Shown: in pieces, positions 41,965 to 61,975 of the stretch
Layout: the number at the start of each line of letters is the position of its first letter
How positions within the stretch are numbered: position 1 is the stretch's first letter
Assembly (NCBI GenBank): GCA_029259055.1
Contig: JAPDJP010000012.1
Location: forward strand, 59,883 to 123,882
Length of the DNA stretch: 64,000 nucleotides
Direction of reading: 5' to 3'
Source of the DNA: Thermoplasmatota archaeon
GTDB taxonomy: Archaea; Thermoplasmatota; E2; UBA202; JdFR-43
Notes under the pieces: generated by a model
What the model was told of the DNA's origin: nothing
Databases searched by the model: none
What the model saw: the letters and a program-made list of their open reading frames with translations, nothing else
Program-made: the position numbers and the translations under genes

Positions 41965-42599
41965 TATCTGGAGGAATGGATTCTGCTGTCTCAGCAGCTA
42001 TTGCAAGGGAAGAAGGAAACGAAATATATGCTATTACTTTTGATTATGGGCAGAGAAATAAAAGAGAAGTGGAATCAGCAAAGGAAATTGCTAAGTGGCT
42101 AAATGCAAAGCATAAAATAATAAAAGTTGACCTCCGCCAGATAGGGGGCTCCGCCCTAACGGATAATATTGAAGTGCCGGAAGAAGCTCATGGTATTCCA
42201 GCTACTTATGTGCCAGCAAGAAACACCATTTTCTTATCTTTTGCTTTGGCATATGCAGAAGTTGTAGATGCGGATTACATTTTTATAGGGGTTAATGCTG
42301 TTGACTATTCCGGGTATCCAGATTGTAGGCCTCAATATATCAAGGCTTTCAGAAATTTAGCCAATCTTGCAACAAAAAGGAGCGTGGAAGGAAGGCCAAT
42401 AGAAATAAAAACTCCTCTCTTATATTTAACAAAAGCAGAAATTGTCAAAAAAGGCTATGAACTTGGAGTTCCCTTTGAAAAAACATGGAGTTGTTATAGG
42501 GAGAGAGAAAAACATTGTGGAAGATGTCCCTCTTGCAAATTAAGAAAAAAAGCATTTAAAGAGGCAGGAATAGAAGATCCGACAGAATATGAAAATTAA
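41931..42599 (+). CDS. queC: 7-cyano-7-deazaguanine synthase QueC
   Basis: 222 aa. PP-loop LISGGMDSAV. C-terminal Zn site CGRCPSCKLR. Confidence 0.9.
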   Translation: MGEMGKKAVCLISGGMDSAVSAAIAREEGNEIYAITFDYGQRNKREVESAKEIAKWLNAKHKIIKVDLRQIGGSALTDNIEVPEEAHGIPATYVPARNTIFLSFALAYAEVVDADYIFIGVNAVDYSGYPDCRPQYIKAFRNLANLATKRSVEGRPIEIKTPLLYLTKAEIVKKGYELGVPFEKTWSCYREREKHCGRCPSCKLRKKAFKEAGIEDPTEYEN

Positions 42600-44034
42600 A
42601 TTGATATTTATCATAATAATGGTTGTTCTTATCGTTGGATGTATTGAAAAGAAGGAAGGAAAACCATCATATTTTAAAACCGGAGAATTTAGAATTGGAG
42701 ATAAATTTGAATACGAATTATGGGGAAAAATGATTTATAGGAGAGATGTGGGATACTATACAAAATTTTATACCTACAGTAGTATTGGAAAAGCAACAAT
42801 AGAGATTAAAGAAGCTAAAATTGAAGACGGTTTTGGAAATGAAATTAACGTAATAGATTTTCATATGACTTCTTATGAAACTCCTTACAATAGGACAGGG
42901 GGGGAAGAGAAGGAGGATTTGACGGTTGATTTAGAAAAACATATATATAGAATATATGAAGGGAATGTAATTGGGGGCATAATTAAAAGCATAACAATAC
43001 ATCATGCATGGAATAGAGATAGGCACATTGAAATAAATTGTTATCCAATAAATGATTTCATTGATTTCTTTTTACAAAAAGAATTCAAGGAAGGAATGAA
43101 TGGAAGTTATATATATGAAGGAAAGGAATTTACATGGAAAACAGAGTATGATAAAGATTTGAAAGCATTAAGAATTAACATAAAAAATGAAAATAATATA
43201 ACTTCTATATGGATTAAAAATGGCTATCCATTACCATATAAAATAGTTTATAAAATGGATAATGAAGTTAGAAATAATACTTATTCTTTTATTTTAAAGG
43301 AATATAAGAAGGGTAAGGGAAAAAATTTCAAAATAGGTAGCAATGGTTATAATTCTTCAAGAAATGCATACTATGAAAAATGGAAAAATTTCATGAGCCC
43401 TTTACAAGGCAACAACAGCAGGATGAAAATGAGTTTAAGAGATGCTGTTGCAAAAGCATTGAGCTATGAAGGCCTAAAGGAATTTATGAGAGAAAATGAC
43501 AATGTATATTTAGTGTATGCGGAATATTGGGAAAAAAAGAATGAAGCAGGGTGGATTTTACATTTTGGAAATGAATATTTAAGGAAAGATTATGTGCTAA
43601 ATGTATCAAATGCTAACAAAGAGCCAATACCCTCTTATGAATTATCTCCATATTTAGCTTATAAAGATATACCAAAGAATTTTGAAGAATTAAATGATAA
43701 GTTGATGGTAATATCAGATGCTGAGAGCATCTTCGAAGATTTTATAAATTATGATTTTAAAAATTTCTCTTTTAGACTCTCATATATTGAAATATATTAT
43801 CCTGATACTTTATTTGATATATGGGAAGGAAATAGCAAAGATAAAGAAATAATAGGCGCTGATATTGAGCCGCAACCGAGAAGCGCTTGCTTAATAGACG
43901 GGTTTTATAAATTAACAAGAGATTATGCCTTTGGATATAGACTGGTGGGTTTTTCTCCTCCATTCATCATATTCGATGGCAAATTAAACGGGATGAATGG
44001 TATGGTTACCTATATTTATTATGAGGAATTATAA
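42589..44034 (+). CDS. Hypothetical secreted/lipoprotein-like protein inserted between queC and queE
   Basis: 481 aa. N-terminus MKIKLIFIIIMVVLIVGCIEKKEG (signal peptide with lipobox-like VGC). No recognisable catalytic motif. Confidence 0.45.
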   Translation: MKIKLIFIIIMVVLIVGCIEKKEGKPSYFKTGEFRIGDKFEYELWGKMIYRRDVGYYTKFYTYSSIGKATIEIKEAKIEDGFGNEINVIDFHMTSYETPYNRTGGEEKEDLTVDLEKHIYRIYEGNVIGGIIKSITIHHAWNRDRHIEINCYPINDFIDFFLQKEFKEGMNGSYIYEGKEFTWKTEYDKDLKALRINIKNENNITSIWIKNGYPLPYKIVYKMDNEVRNNTYSFILKEYKKGKGKNFKIGSNGYNSSRNAYYEKWKNFMSPLQGNNSRMKMSLRDAVAKALSYEGLKEFMRENDNVYLVYAEYWEKKNEAGWILHFGNEYLRKDYVLNVSNANKEPIPSYELSPYLAYKDIPKNFEELNDKLMVISDAESIFEDFINYDFKNFSFRLSYIEIYYPDTLFDIWEGNSKDKEIIGADIEPQPRSACLIDGFYKLTRDYAFGYRLVGFSPPFIIFDGKLNGMNGMVTYIYYEEL

Positions 44035-44686: not shown

Positions 44687-44724
44687 TTTAGATAAATTTA
44701 TAAATGATTGCAAATTATTAGCAT

Positions 44725-44844
44725 ATGAGGGGATGGGAGTATATAGATAACTTTGGAGAAAGTTTAAAAATATATGGAAAAGGAAATTTGAGACGGCTAA
44801 TAGATGCCAAAGGAAGAATAGTTATTGAATATAAGGTAAAATAA
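44725..44844 (+). CDS. Small conserved ORF (39 aa), paralog of 60710..60826; not in the ORF track
   Basis: MRGWEYIDNFGESLKIYGKGNLRRLIDAKGRIVIEYKVK. About 50% identical to the second copy, with shared motif LKI..(K/R)GN.RRL...KG..VIEY.V. Confidence 0.4.
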   Translation: MRGWEYIDNFGESLKIYGKGNLRRLIDAKGRIVIEYKVK

Positions 44845-57293: not shown

Positions 57294-57830
57294 TTATTCT
57301 AGGGTAGCATGCCTTCTTTTCATACTTTCCTCGCTTTCTCCTTTTTTAGCCATTAATTCTGCTATTAAGCCATCTAAAAAAATCCAAGCAGATGCTTCAA
57401 ATAATGTTCCTAAAGGAGCTAAATCAGCTTTTTTATCTCTTGGCTTTAAAATAACAACCAAATCTGCAAATCTTGCAATGTGGGAATCTGGATTTGCTGT
57501 TATTGATATTATCTTTGCTCCTAATCGACGGGCAATTTCTGCCGTCATTGCAACAGGTATTGTTTCTCCTGAGCCTGAAATTAAAACAACCAGATCTCCT
57601 TTTCTTACTGGCTTTGTTATTGTTTCACCAATAACAAAAGTGGGAAAACCTAAATGAACCAATCTTATTGCAAAAGCTTTTCCAACTAATCCGCTTCTAC
57701 CAGCTCCATAAACAAATATATTTTTTGCTTTGAAAAAATAATCTACAATTTCTTCTATCTTCTCTTTTTCAATTTGGAGAATCTGTTTGATTTCTTTCCA
57801 TATATAATCAATAGCTTCTTCAAACTTCAT
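57294..57830 (-). CDS. SIS-domain sugar-phosphate isomerase (6-phospho-3-hexuloisomerase-like)
   Basis: 178 aa. FVYGAGRSGLVGKAFAIRL...LISGSGET is the SIS signature. Confidence 0.65.
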   Translation of the reverse strand: MKFEEAIDYIWKEIKQILQIEKEKIEEIVDYFFKAKNIFVYGAGRSGLVGKAFAIRLVHLGFPTFVIGETITKPVRKGDLVVLISGSGETIPVAMTAEIARRLGAKIISITANPDSHIARFADLVVILKPRDKKADLAPLGTLFEASAWIFLDGLIAELMAKKGESEESMKRRHATLE

Positions 57831-58648
57831 TTCATCATTTCCATTGCTCTATCAAGCAATATTTGTGCATATACAGCATCATGCTCAACAACTGGTGACT
57901 CGGATATTATTGTAACATCATAGTCATTTTCGAGTATGCATTCCATCAATTTTATGACAGGTATATCTCCTTTTTTTATTGGAACGTGATATAATTCTCC
58001 GCTACTATCATATTTTACTCCTGTCAAATGAATTAAATAATGATTCAGATTTAAATCTTTTAAGGCATCAAAAATTTTTTGAAAATCTTCCTTTTCCTTT
58101 AAACATCCATTACATCTCGCATGTATATGTCCAATATCTATAACTGGGACAGTTCCTCTCACTCTTTTGCATACTTCAATAATTTCTTCCAAGCTACCAA
58201 AGACTTCTTTTTTTCCCATGGTTTCTAAGCCAATAGGAACTTCGATTCCCCTTTTTTTAACTCTATCTCTAATAGCCCTCAAGTTTTTGACAATTCTTTT
58301 CATTGTTTCTTTCTTTGATAAATTGCCATAAAATCCTAAATGCGTTGTCATTATACGAGCTCCCATTAGATGAGCAAGATATAGGGATTTTTCTATTTTT
58401 TCTCTACTCATTTTAACATTTCTTTTATCTCCTGCCAAATTTATATAATAGGGAGCATGAACATATATTGCTATATCACACTTTTTTGCAACTCTTTTTA
58501 TTTCCTTAGCTTCTTCATTACTTATAAAACCTCTAGCAAATCTTATTTCCATTGCAGATAGACCCAAACATCTCGTATATATGATTCCATCTATATTTGT
58601 TCTTTCTTTGCATGATAATGGTATGCCTGCGGGCCCAATTCTTATCAC
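57827..58648 (-). CDS. nfo: Endonuclease IV (Nfo, AP endonuclease family 2 TIM barrel)
   Basis: 273 aa. YVHAPYYINLAG, IDIGHIHARCNG and IHL...GDIP segments parallel the Nfo metal-binding regions. Confidence 0.7.
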   Translation of the reverse strand: MIRIGPAGIPLSCKERTNIDGIIYTRCLGLSAMEIRFARGFISNEEAKEIKRVAKKCDIAIYVHAPYYINLAGDKRNVKMSREKIEKSLYLAHLMGARIMTTHLGFYGNLSKKETMKRIVKNLRAIRDRVKKRGIEVPIGLETMGKKEVFGSLEEIIEVCKRVRGTVPVIDIGHIHARCNGCLKEKEDFQKIFDALKDLNLNHYLIHLTGVKYDSSGELYHVPIKKGDIPVIKLMECILENDYDVTIISESPVVEHDAVYAQILLDRAMEMMK

Positions 58649-58671
58649 AGAATTTTTGAAATAGTTTTGAG

Positions 58672-59310
58672 TTAATATAAATTTCCATTTCTAATGATTT
58701 TTTTTGCCCATTCTAATTTTCTCTTTTTGATTTTCAAATCTTTTCCTTCTTTTTTTCTGGGCTCTTCAAAATTAAAACCGACTAGCTTTATTTTTTTCGC
58801 ATTAAAATGTTTTGCAATGCAATAAGCTCTATCTCCATCCGTAAATCCTCCAAAATTGTGCAATTTGTCAAAAGGTTTGGATTGTGTAGTCAATAAAAAA
58901 TTTTTAAATAATGAGATATGTTTTAAAGATTGTATGTTATCTCCATGAACATGTATAATCAAAATGCTACCTTTTTTATTTGCTTCCAATAAATCCTCAA
59001 TATTTCCATCTAAATCTGTTGTTATAATATGCGGTACAATATTATTCTTTAATAGAATAGATGTGGCCTCATCTGCAGAAATAATTGTTCCTTCTATATT
59101 TTTGAGTTCTTTTTCAAGATTTTTTCCAGCTCCACATATGCTAACGATTCTATTTTCTATAAATTTTTTTAAAACATTCGCTTCTATCTGCTTTTTTGCA
59201 TATTTAAGGGCTAATTTTGAGGCTTCTTTATCTTTTTCTTCATCATATCCAAAATCCTGCAGAATTTTTTTATAAATTGGCTCCCATTCTTCCCATTCCA
59301 TTATTCCCAC
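58672..59310 (-). CDS. MptE-like 6-hydroxymethyl-7,8-dihydropterin pyrophosphokinase (DUF115 family)
   Basis: 212 aa. Recalled family features SICGAGKNL and HVHGDN. Assignment is tentative. Confidence 0.45.
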
Positions 59311-60242
59311 TCTATAGTTGCTGGTGGCTTATTCGAAATATCATATACAACCCTATTTACTTCTCTTATTTCATTTGTTATTCTAGTTGCTATTCTTTCT
59401 AATAAATCATGTGGCAACCTTGAAAAATTGGCTGTCATCGCATCGACGCTATCAACACATCTTACTGCTATAGTATAACCATATGCTCTAACATCCCCTC
59501 TCACTCCAACGCTTTTAACCGGCAGTAAAACAGCAAAATATTGCCATGGCAAATCAATCAGTTTTTCTTTATGCGCCTTTTCAATTTCTTCCTCAACTAT
59601 ACTACAAGCTTCCCTAACAATTCTTAATCTTTCTTCCGTAACTTCGCCAATTATTCTAACAGCCAAGCCCGGCCCCGGAAAAGGTTGCCTCTCCGCCACC
59701 TCCAAGCCAAGAAAACGGGCAACTTTTCTAACCTCGTCTTTATATAAATGTCTGAGTGGCTCAACAATTTTTATTTTCATATCTTTGGGCAAACCACCAA
59801 CATTATGATGGCTTTTGATTGTATCCCTCAACCCCCCTCCACTTTCTATCCAATCGGGTGCTATTGTTCCCTGTATTAAATATTCTGCTTTCTCTTCTCT
59901 TGCTATTCTTTCAAAAATTCTAATAAATTTTTCTCCAATTATTTTTCTTTTCTCTTCTGGATCAACGATTCCTTTTAAAGCTTCTAAAAATTCTTTTTTC
60001 GCATCAACAAATACAAATTTTAAATTCATTTTTCCATATAGATTTTTAACAAAATCGCTTTCTCCTTTTCTCATTAAGCCTGTATCAACATAAACAGCGG
60101 TTAGATTTTTTCCTAAAGCCATGCTTCCCAATTTTGCAGCTACGCTTGAATCAACTCCTCCAGATACAGCTATAATTGCTTTTCCTTTTAGTTTTTTTAG
60201 TTCTTCAATGGCTTCTTTAACGAACTTTTCCACATCAAACAT
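59301..60242 (-). CDS. guaA: GMP synthase subunit B (ATP pyrophosphatase domain; archaeal split GuaA)
   Basis: 313 aa. PP-loop [11 protein letters not shown]-terminus ...PPATIEWE. Confidence 0.9.
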
Positions 60243-60717
60243 CTTTATACCCTTCTCTCATTTTTTTTCTATATTCATCAAGTTTTTGAAATAATTTTTC
60301 ATCTTTTAAAGCCAACATCTGTATAGCAAGTAAGGCAGCATTATCTCCTCTATCCAAACCAACAGCAGCAACTGGTATACCAGGAGGCATTTGAACAATA
60401 GAAAGAATTGCATCTAAATTGAGTTTTCCAGAAACGGGAACCCCTATAACAGGTTTGTTTGTATAGGCTGCTATACTACCAGGCAAGGCTGCCGATAGGC
60501 CAGCTATTGCTATAAAAATGTCTGCATCACTTTGTGCAATTTCCTTTATCTTTTCTGGTGTCCTGTGTGCGGATGCAAATTTAACTTCATATTCAATATC
60601 AAATTTTTCAAGAATATCAATAGCTTTTTTTCCAACATTCTCGTCACTTTTAGATGCCATCACAACCATTACTTTCATAAGCTTAAAATAGAGAAAATTA
60701 AAAAGATTTCTATTCAA
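60235..60717 (-). CDS. purE: N5-carboxyaminoimidazole ribonucleotide mutase PurE
   Basis: VVMASKSD..., [14 protein letters not shown] and QMPPGIPVA match the PurE pattern. The true start is probably MKVMVVM. Confidence 0.9.
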
Positions 60718-60826
60718 CAGTATATTCTATTACAACTTCTCCTTTTTCATTGACTAATCTTCTTTTATTTCCTCTTGCTATTATCTTCAAATTCGCATAT
60801 CTTCCTTTTTCTTCCCATTCATCCAT
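60710..60826 (-). CDS. Small conserved ORF (38 aa), paralog of 44725..44844; not in the ORF track
   Basis: [38 protein letters not shown]. Lies immediately 5' of purE on the same strand. Confidence 0.4.
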
Positions 60827-60925
60827 TGGGTAATAATCTTTTACCCCTTTAAAAATTTTGTCCTTACAAAGCAATTTTGTTTTTATAGAACAACAAAAAT
60901 TTTATAATATGCTATAAATCAAATT

Positions 60926-61975
60926 GTGAAAAAACTCGAAAAGAATTCATTTTACGTTGGAAAGTTAGCAGAAGGCTGTAAAATATGCAGAAAGGGTGCA
61001 AAACTTGTTTTACTTGTAACTGGATTATGTAATGCAAATTGCTTTTATTGTCCATTATCAGAAAAAAAGAAGGGGAAGGATGTCATATATGCAGATGAAA
61101 TGATTGTAAGAAAAAAAGAAGACATTATTGAAGAAGCAGAATTAATAGAAGCGGAAGGAACAGGAATTACTGGAGGGGACCCTCTTATTGTATTGGACAG
61201 GACAATAGAATTTATAAAACTTTTAAAGAATTATTTTGGGGAGGAGCATCATATCCATTTATATACTGCTACTCTTGATTATAAAAAAGCAGAAAAATTA
61301 GGGAAAGCAGGATTAGATGAAATAAGGTTTCATCCAATGCCTACTTTATGGAAAAAAATAGAGAAAACAAAATTTAGAGAAATAGTAAAGAAACTGGAAA
61401 TTGATAAAGGGATGGAAATTCCCTTAGTTCCGCATATGAAAAAGGAAACTTTTCATTTATTAAAAGTAGTGGATGATTATAATTTAGATTTCATTAATTT
61501 AAATGAACTTGAATTTTCAATAACTAATCTTGAAGCATTAGATAAATATGGATATGTTGCAAAAAGCGATGAATCATCTGCTGTTAAAGGTAGTGAAGAA
61601 ATGGCATATGAAATTTTAGATTTAGGATTATCTACTCCTATACATTATTGCTCCTCTTCTTTTAAAGATGCTGTTCAATTAAGAAAAAGAATAGAAAGGA
61701 GAGCAAGGAATGTTGCAAAAATTTATGAAATCATAACAGAAGATGGAACTTTATTGAAAGGCGTTATAATGGCTGATAAAGAAAAAATAAAAGAAATTAT
61801 GGAAGAATTTGAAATAGATGAAAACATGATTTCATGGGATGAAAAAAAGAAAAGGATAGAAACTTCTCCTTTTATTATTGAAGAAATTGCCCAGTATTTA
61901 CCATATAAATGCTATATTATTGAGGAATATCCTACTGCAGATAGGCTTGAGGTTGAAATAACTCCTTTAAACTAA
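60926..61975 (+). CDS. Radical-SAM protein of unknown function (PFL-activase-related, COG2108-like)
   Basis: 349 aa. TGLCNANCFYCP CxxxCxxC motif and GGDPL. Confidence 0.65.
   Translation: MKKLEKNSFYVGKLAEGCKICRKGAKLVLLVTGLCNANCFYCPLSEKKKGKDVIYADEMIVRKKEDIIEEAELIEAEGTGITGGDPLIVLDRTIEFIKLLKNYFGEEHHIHLYTATLDYKKAEKLGKAGLDEIRFHPMPTLWKKIEKTKFREIVKKLEIDKGMEIPLVPHMKKETFHLLKVVDDYNLDFINLNELEFSITNLEALDKYGYVAKSDESSAVKGSEEMAYEILDLGLSTPIHYCSSSFKDAVQLRKRIERRARNVAKIYEIITEDGTLLKGVIMADKEKIKEIMEEFEIDENMISWDEKKKRIETSPFIIEEIAQYLPYKCYIIEEYPTADRLEVEITPLN

Follow-up and report, generated by a model that had tools for sequence, protein, structure and literature searches.

A conserved single-unit relative of WG-repeat proteins encoded beside purE in a Thermoplasmatota archaeon

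A short open reading frame, termed ORF B, lies upstream of purE in a 64,000-nucleotide stretch of DNA from a Thermoplasmatota archaeon (hereafter the window). We find that ORF B is a real, conserved archaeal protein-coding gene. We consider it probable, with a likelihood of roughly 70%, that it is an autonomous mini-gene with its own promoter and a leaderless mRNA, whose single-WG-unit protein functions in trans rather than as a cis-acting leader. In the mechanism that we propose, a near-consensus archaeal TATA box belonging to ORF B would cause transcription to start at or within a few nucleotides of the ATG, and the leaderless mRNA would be translated into a 38-residue single-unit protein that is predicted to form a four-stranded antiparallel beta-meander. 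This protein would act in trans, its sheet most probably either assembling with further copies as a ring or propeller-like oligomer or binding to another protein. Read-through into purE, if it happens, would follow incidentally from a strong promoter and a T-rich spacer.

A conserved gene family related to WG repeats

ORF B is an ATG-initiated frame of 38 codons on the minus strand of the window (60710..60826), with the coding sequence running from 60826 to 60713 and a TAG stop codon at 60712-60710; its product is best described as a microprotein comprising a single WG-type blade. The original prediction had placed this 38-aa frame on the same strand as a purE-guaA-mptE-nfo-SIS operon and considered it the second copy of a small-ORF family, and both statements hold. 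When the whole window is searched with tblastn, the only other significant match to ORF B is ORF A (E=6e-7, 42% identity; the next match has E=2.8). ORF A encodes a 39-aa paralogue (MRGWEYIDNFGESLKIYGKGNLRRLIDAKGRIVIEYKVK; 44725..44844, plus strand), is located after queE, and is a member of the subgroup whose genes are found ahead of nurA-herA in relatives.

Among 5.8 billion proteins, word-indexed searches returned only ORFs A and B of the window. When species genomes and metagenomes were scanned for patterns, relatives came to light in two MAGs, titled Thermoplasmata and Thermoplasmatales archaeon, and a profile made from five members then retrieved 17 clusters from the 5.8-billion-protein database, all with a core of 37-41 aa. 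The relatives are known from uncultured organisms, Thermoplasmata-type archaea, and carry database names no more informative than “hypothetical protein”. Their consensus is M-R-G-W-E-x-[IV]-[GD]-x-F-G-E-S-L-[KR]-I-Y-x-K-G-x-x-R-R-L-[VI]-D-x-x-G-x-[VI]-[VI]-x-E-Y. One of them, P0016 (locus L015), is the ORF B orthologue and is 76% identical. The MAG that carries P0016 also has a copy of the nurA-preceding type (N type), and therefore the two-paralogue state is older than the split of these species.

The protein sequence has been maintained by selection throughout the family. By the Nei-Gojobori method, dN/dS is 0.13 between ORF B and its L015 orthologue and 0.04-0.19 for the other family pairs that give a finite estimate, with values of 0.04-0.12 for ORF A. 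Synonymous sites are saturated between most lineages, and the pair L024 and L025 differs by 10 synonymous and 0 non-synonymous changes. The sole SNP within ORF B inside the species, at 60719, is synonymous and occurs in 3 of 8 contigs; one strain variant carries the conservative change I16V.

Scanned as single sequences, ORF A, ORF B and eight further single-unit relatives gave no Pfam match at E<=1, and ORF A, ORF B and relatives likewise yielded no match to NCBIfam or PHROG models. As judged from these scans, no model in any of the three collections covers the family. A more distant relationship emerges at the profile level. The family profile matched 196 proteins at E<=1e-3 among 1.84 billion representatives. 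About half of these hits, among the best 150 of the 196, are single-unit proteins of 37-110 aa with the signature G-W-x-x-[IV]-G-x-[FY]-[GA]...I...G-x-x-R-R-[LI]-[VI]-D-x-x-G...E-Y. The remaining hits are proteins of 125-1155 aa with 2-9 matching stretches each, reaching E-values as low as 7e-16, and all 10 of those tested belong to Pfam PF14903 (WG_beta_rep). Alignment repeat by repeat equates the small protein with exactly one PF14903 repeat, with R-R-L-V-D placed opposite W-G-F-I-D. Among individual repeats, the best matches the family profile with an i-E of 2.4e-10, and hhalign against independently cut repeats gives a probability of 90% (E 1.8e-6). On these comparisons, the ORF B protein is one unit of the PF14903 “WG” repeat in which WG has been replaced by RR.

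The homology thus extends over the unit of ~35 residues at the profile level, while ORF A, ORF B and the eight relatives stay below the PF14903 gathering threshold of 25.6 bits as individual sequences. The WG dipeptide that is conserved before [FY]-I-D in PF14903 is absent, with RR standing in its place in all Thermoplasmata members; distant single-unit members without exception have the first R, and at least 90% of them also have the second. Otherwise, the small family and WG-repeat proteins have in common the pattern aromatic-[DE]-x-x-x-x-F-x-E-G-L-x-x-[VI] ... [LF]-[IV]-D-x-x-G-x-[VI]-[VI]-[IV]-E. WG-repeat proteins carry 5-10 units per polypeptide and end the unit with E-P, whereas the small chains of 37-41 aa consist of one unit, without tandem repetition, and terminate in E-Y. 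The small proteins also lack signal peptides and fused domains, whereas several WG proteins have an N-terminal hydrophobic segment. In contrast to the large multi-repeat proteins, the small family appears from the recovered sequences to be encoded by archaeal and viral genes. Our literature search on PF14903 found nothing beyond one modelling table.

Two distant members occupy contexts of a different kind. One of 39 aa (L053 4001-4120; also in the related loci L053-L060) has an HK97-gp10-like gene on one side and a tail-tube gene on the other, and is present on four viral contigs of IMG/VR; another of 44 aa (L049 964-1098; L049-L052) resides in an island of tiny ORFs that also contains a tyrosine integrase.

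Predicted fold and possible mode of action

AlphaFold2, given an alignment of 16 sequences, models ORF B with a pLDDT of 93.1 and predicts strands at residues 5-10, 13-18, 21-25 and 31-36. The predicted four-stranded antiparallel beta-meander of about 40 residues matches single beta-propeller blades, and the blade-like sheet resembles the tandem units of WG proteins, which are modelled as a propeller-like array. A PDB sequence search with the family profile and one WG-repeat protein identified no solved relative, and a search of viral folds in BFVD gave no match below E 0.085.

Hydrophobic residues of the modelled protein (W4, I/K7, F/Y10, L14, I16, L25, V26, V32-I34 and Y36) alternate onto both faces of the sheet. 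A lone sheet that is hydrophobic on both faces cannot bury a core by itself, and therefore should self-associate or dock on another protein. Thus, if the model is correct, ORF B most probably works through self-association or docking on a partner, although WW-type mini-sheets demonstrate that a protein of about 38 residues may also exist as a monomer. The W of the WG dipeptide is assumed to pack between repeats in multi-repeat proteins, and a unit in which this W is replaced by R could fail to assemble like a propeller. The presence of RR in place of WG is therefore a reason for caution with regard to canonical propeller assembly. The almost invariant RR pair may also be a functional site, such as one that binds anionic ligands.

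A more specific version of this idea is that free-standing single blades self-assemble into homo-oligomeric rings in both archaea and viruses, that the cellular paralogues are leaderless first cistrons (for example of nurA-herA), and that RR forms a ligand- or nucleic-acid-binding site in the ring. We regard this scheme as possible but on balance doubtful. If it holds, the family would preserve in present-day organisms the “single ancestral blade” that has been postulated as a stage in the evolution of propellers.

Amplification of a single blade is the proposed origin of beta-propellers, and in oligomeric lectin propellers, such as the trimers of two-blade RSL/BambL, several identical short chains close one propeller. 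The RSL/BambL chains have two blades and known sugar-binding activity, whereas the ORF B family has neither a sequence relationship to them nor any sign of sugar binding. To our knowledge, there is hardly any record of natural single-blade proteins that are under selection.

Reconstructed tachylectin-2 motifs of 47 residues form functional pentameric propellers in the laboratory, and single FG-GAP-like ORFs have been noted in Crocosphaera and Frankia, such that natural single-motif ORFs resembling propeller blades are already known (Smock et al. 2016, PMC4735018). Single WD40 blades, on the other hand, are unfolded in vitro (Afanasieva et al. 2019, PMC6805158). As with ORF B, these natural ORFs and engineered blades (PMC4735018, PMC6805158) represent one blade-sized peptide of 41-47 aa that is encoded alone. 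However, the earlier natural examples are isolated, resemble multi-blade genes of the same genome, and come without evidence of selection or expression signals. What appears to be new here is an entire single-unit family with purifying selection, a fixed and apparently leaderless promoter architecture, conserved synteny that includes nurA-herA, and viral relatives, although its assembly is putative. A conserved single WG-type unit with both cellular and viral members would make it practicable to ask, in a natural system, whether oligomerisation allows one blade to fold and function.

Promoter geometry and the start codon

The TATA box of ORF B, TTTTTAAA (60848..60855, minus strand), ends 21 nt before the ATG and lies within a block of ~40 nt (about 60827-60870) that is nearly identical in the alignment with L015. 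ORF A has the box TTTATAAA (44697..44704, plus strand), which sits in the 38-nt gap after the queE stop codon and ends 20 nt before the ATG. In all 15 family promoters examined (14 distinct promoters plus that of locus L046), one of these two exact octamers ends 18-21 nt upstream of the ATG. For comparison, the exact octamers occur in the window at a background of 5.9e-4 per position, and among 64 window genes just one carries an exact box 18-21 nt upstream of its first ATG.

A TATA box at this distance leaves no room for a 5′ UTR, and hence the mRNAs should be leaderless or nearly so. The usual archaeal initiator is Py/Pu, and a pyrimidine is found at −1 in 12 of 14 family promoters (L046 is outside this count). 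In ORF B, CA precedes the ATG, suggesting a leader of 0-1 nt. Archaeal promoters have their TATA box centred about 26 nt upstream of the start site; the TATA-to-ATG spacing observed here is 1-3 nt shorter than the textbook −26/−27 centre, and the exact transcription start of ORF B is therefore uncertain. Nonetheless, the family displays the features of archaeal leaderless transcripts, including the TATA distance, the lack of space for a 5′ UTR or Shine-Dalgarno sequence and, mostly, the pyrimidine at −1. We infer that the ORF B mRNA is leaderless or nearly so, as had been suggested at the outset, with the position of TTTTTAAA and the same geometry in all 15 promoters supporting this view.

The alternative start that had been put forward, a TTG giving a protein of ~64 aa, is not supported by the sequence. 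The frame is indeed open upstream and without ATG, although for 25 codons rather than 26, and the longest TTG-initiated form is 54 aa. This is the form called by public annotation, from the TTG at 60874. We rejected it, as we did a 47-aa call for the orthologue P0016: the former starts upstream of the TATA box and runs through it, and the latter starts inside it. Moreover, all family members align from the same methionine, in the context M-x-x-W. A family of 37-41 aa proteins that gene callers have missed or mis-started can now be defined for annotation, on the basis of sequence signature, start codon and promoter geometry.

Genomic neighbourhoods and competing roles

Members of the family reside in three types of chromosomal context. 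In the N type, the small ORF is found 23-27 nt upstream of nurA-herA in at least five clusters at 90% identity, an arrangement for which a literature search found no description. These spacers contain no T run longer than five. Five of them (L020 4127-4153, L024 3328-3353, L028 4124-4146, L035 1979-2005 and L009 6124-6148) share the motif ATTA[CT] located 6-10 nt before the nurA ATG, and, except for a GGAG in L035, none of the five has a Shine-Dalgarno-like sequence. At L035, the small ORF-nurA-herA unit directly follows genes for eIF-1A, Rio1 kinase and a KH/Pno1-like protein (143-1684).

ORF A can be understood as a remnant of this arrangement. The gene order at L028 is queD-queC-X-queE, small ORF, nurA-herA, and this order is still seen in L028-L030; its ancestral presence accounts for the position of ORF A after queE. 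No nurA or herA gene is present in the 64-kb window; nurA-herA have disappeared from this position in the window genome, and ORF A is instead followed by a convergent beta-CASP (RNase) gene. We had considered a theme of purine- or GTP-derived metabolites (queE, purE and purC being nearby), and discarded it because ancestral gene order explains the adjacency to queE. In the P type, which comprises three clusters, the small ORF is divergent from a PIN_6 gene plus a small HTH gene; the PIN_6 protein is of the PRK12496 family. Taken with the genes that precede the unit at L035, this hints at a possible connection to ribosome biogenesis.

The B type, to which ORF B belongs, is represented in three species, always inside or beside the purE-guaA-mptE neighbourhood. 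In the window, purE (60235..60678, minus strand; 147 aa; AIR carboxylase / N5-CAIR mutase; Pfam AIRC 1.4e-52, TIGR01162 2.7e-52) is followed on the same strand by genes for the guaA C-terminal subunit (GMP synthase; 59301-60242), an MptE-like kinase (mptE-like; 58672-59310), an AP_endonuc_2 TIM barrel (57827-58648) and a SIS protein (57294-57830). The cluster from guaA to SIS (57294..60242) is also present at L015, a locus of the Thermoplasmatales MAG, where P0016 lies upstream of purE-guaA-mptE-TIM-SIS and divergent from a radical SAM/DUF8061 gene. The counterpart of this divergent gene in the window (60926..61975, plus strand) has its intergenic region in common with ORF B. The order purE-guaA-mptE-nfo-SIS given in the original prediction is correct, but the label “nfo” is weak, since the protein reaches 58 bits where the NCBIfam model for deoxyribonuclease IV requires 333; it is an AP_endonuc_2 TIM-barrel protein of uncertain function. 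Its gene adjoins the SIS gene, which makes a sugar-phosphate role as likely.

In the third species (L046/L047), whose PurE and GuaA are each 83% identical to those of the window, the orthologue P0181 is positioned between mptE and the gene that follows, with TTTTTAAA 20 nt before its ATG and T-rich runs after the gene. This relative retains purE-guaA-mptE and has no small ORF upstream of purE. The TIM-barrel gene after P0181 is not orthologous to that of the window (31% identity) and best matches CbiR or epimerase models. A “nuclease neighbour” theme joining NurA, Nfo and PIN was also discarded, given the weak Nfo match and the different TIM-barrel protein at L046. The location of ORF B beside purE thus reflects lineage-specific synteny with the purE-guaA-mptE cluster, and its position relative to purE is not conserved. 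A functional link between B-type copies and this cluster may nevertheless exist, judging from the three species.

Such links raise the question of whether the small proteins are accessory subunits or regulators of the neighbouring enzymes, with N-type copies serving NurA-HerA and B-type copies serving a protein of the purE-guaA-mptE-TIM-SIS cluster. The N-type spacing upstream of nurA-herA is preserved among clusters whose synonymous sites are saturated, and the B type keeps to the same purine/pterin cluster in three species. However, ORF A exists without nurA or herA within 64 kb, P-type copies stand alone opposite the PIN_6 gene, and the B type switches its immediate neighbour, which at L046 is not even an orthologous TIM-barrel gene. 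The distant relatives in viral tail modules and integrase islands likewise fit poorly with dedicated partners of this kind. As the general explanation for the family we therefore judge this role rather unlikely. A partner role, especially with NurA-HerA for the N type, is nonetheless plausible and would be compatible with the preferred reading of an autonomous gene whose product acts in trans. Because the small ORF repeatedly occupies the promoter-proximal place ahead of nurA-herA, it may encode a small component or regulator of this repair machinery that has so far gone unrecognised in Thermoplasmata-type archaea.

The viral and island-borne relatives could instead indicate that the gene, domesticated or parasitic, comes from viruses or mobile elements and that its chromosomal positions merely reflect insertion next to promoters. 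The compact promoter that accompanies each chromosomal copy would also agree with this. We find such an origin improbable, because the chromosomal copies remain in stable housekeeping synteny across species that are saturated at synonymous sites, the gene lists contain neither flanking repeats nor an integrase in the vicinity of ORF A or ORF B, and a scan of viral contigs with the Thermoplasmata alignment detected no relatives.

Bacterial nucleotide operons can have leader peptides and transcription attenuators, such as the pyrBI leader, and the original prediction proposed an analogous regulatory role for ORF B. Translation of ORF B in cis would sense purine or nucleotide status and thereby control read-through into purE-guaA. 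As in the bacterial systems, a short ORF on the same strand precedes a nucleotide operon and is followed by a T-rich tract, which in principle could terminate archaeal RNA polymerase, and the arrangement is kept in a second species (L015). ORF B does not, however, end 1-7 nt before PurE start codons as had been stated. The purE ATG at 60678 is identical in L015 and agrees with public gene calls (147 aa), which places it 31 nt downstream of the ORF B stop; the only in-frame start that abuts or overlaps ORF B is a TTG at 60717 that is not conserved.

The intervening 31-nt spacer (60679..60709, minus strand) is T-rich (T5, T4, T4) and contains a TATA-like element, TTTTTAAT (60704-60697), located 18 nt before the purE ATG and kept in L015 at 19 nt. 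From its composition, the spacer possibly ends ORF B transcripts as an oligo-T terminator, acts as a promoter of leaderless purE, or does both. No RNA structure was detected in it (MFE −12.2 kcal/mol, z=+1.05 relative to shuffled sequences), Rfam gave no match at E<=1 for 60500-61100, and the whole 64-kb window contains no match at Rfam gathering thresholds, including tRNAs, rRNAs and known riboswitches. Archaeal oligo-T termination works without a hairpin, and thus a spacer devoid of structure would by itself leave read-through control possible.

The peptide and its relatives also speak against a leader role. Purifying selection acts on the entire peptide, which is modelled with high confidence as a folded domain. 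It is shared with paralogues ahead of nurA-herA, beside a PIN gene and after queE, which are unrelated contexts. In L046/L047, no ORF precedes the purE operon, and the orthologue is located after mptE, where it has a promoter of its own. The original prediction itself held that absence of the ORF from a close relative retaining the purE operon would speak against it, and such a relative, one in our sample, was found. Also unlike an attenuator, ORF B is not always in the 5′ leader of the operon and no alternative RNA structure or terminator hairpin precedes the first gene, while the conserved TATA-like element implies that purE may be transcribed from its own start. ORF B is not a leader peptide controlling the purine operon, a role to which we assign very little likelihood, and this hypothesis can be dropped in favor of an independent gene with a product that probably acts in trans.

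That ORF B is a chance frame in an AT-rich promoter region, as might be imagined from its short length, its lack of a Shine-Dalgarno sequence and the missing Pfam, NCBIfam and PHROG matches, is refuted by the comparative data, namely significant paralogy and orthology, dN/dS well below 1, a pLDDT of 93 and conserved promoter geometry.

The queD-queC-X-queE operon that precedes ORF A is an archaeosine/queuosine-precursor (7-deazaguanine) operon, and also includes a member without family assignment. This gene (42589-44034, plus strand) encodes 481 aa with no Pfam match at E<=1, and counterparts of 471-482 aa, likewise without Pfam assignment, occupy the same position in L001 and L028.
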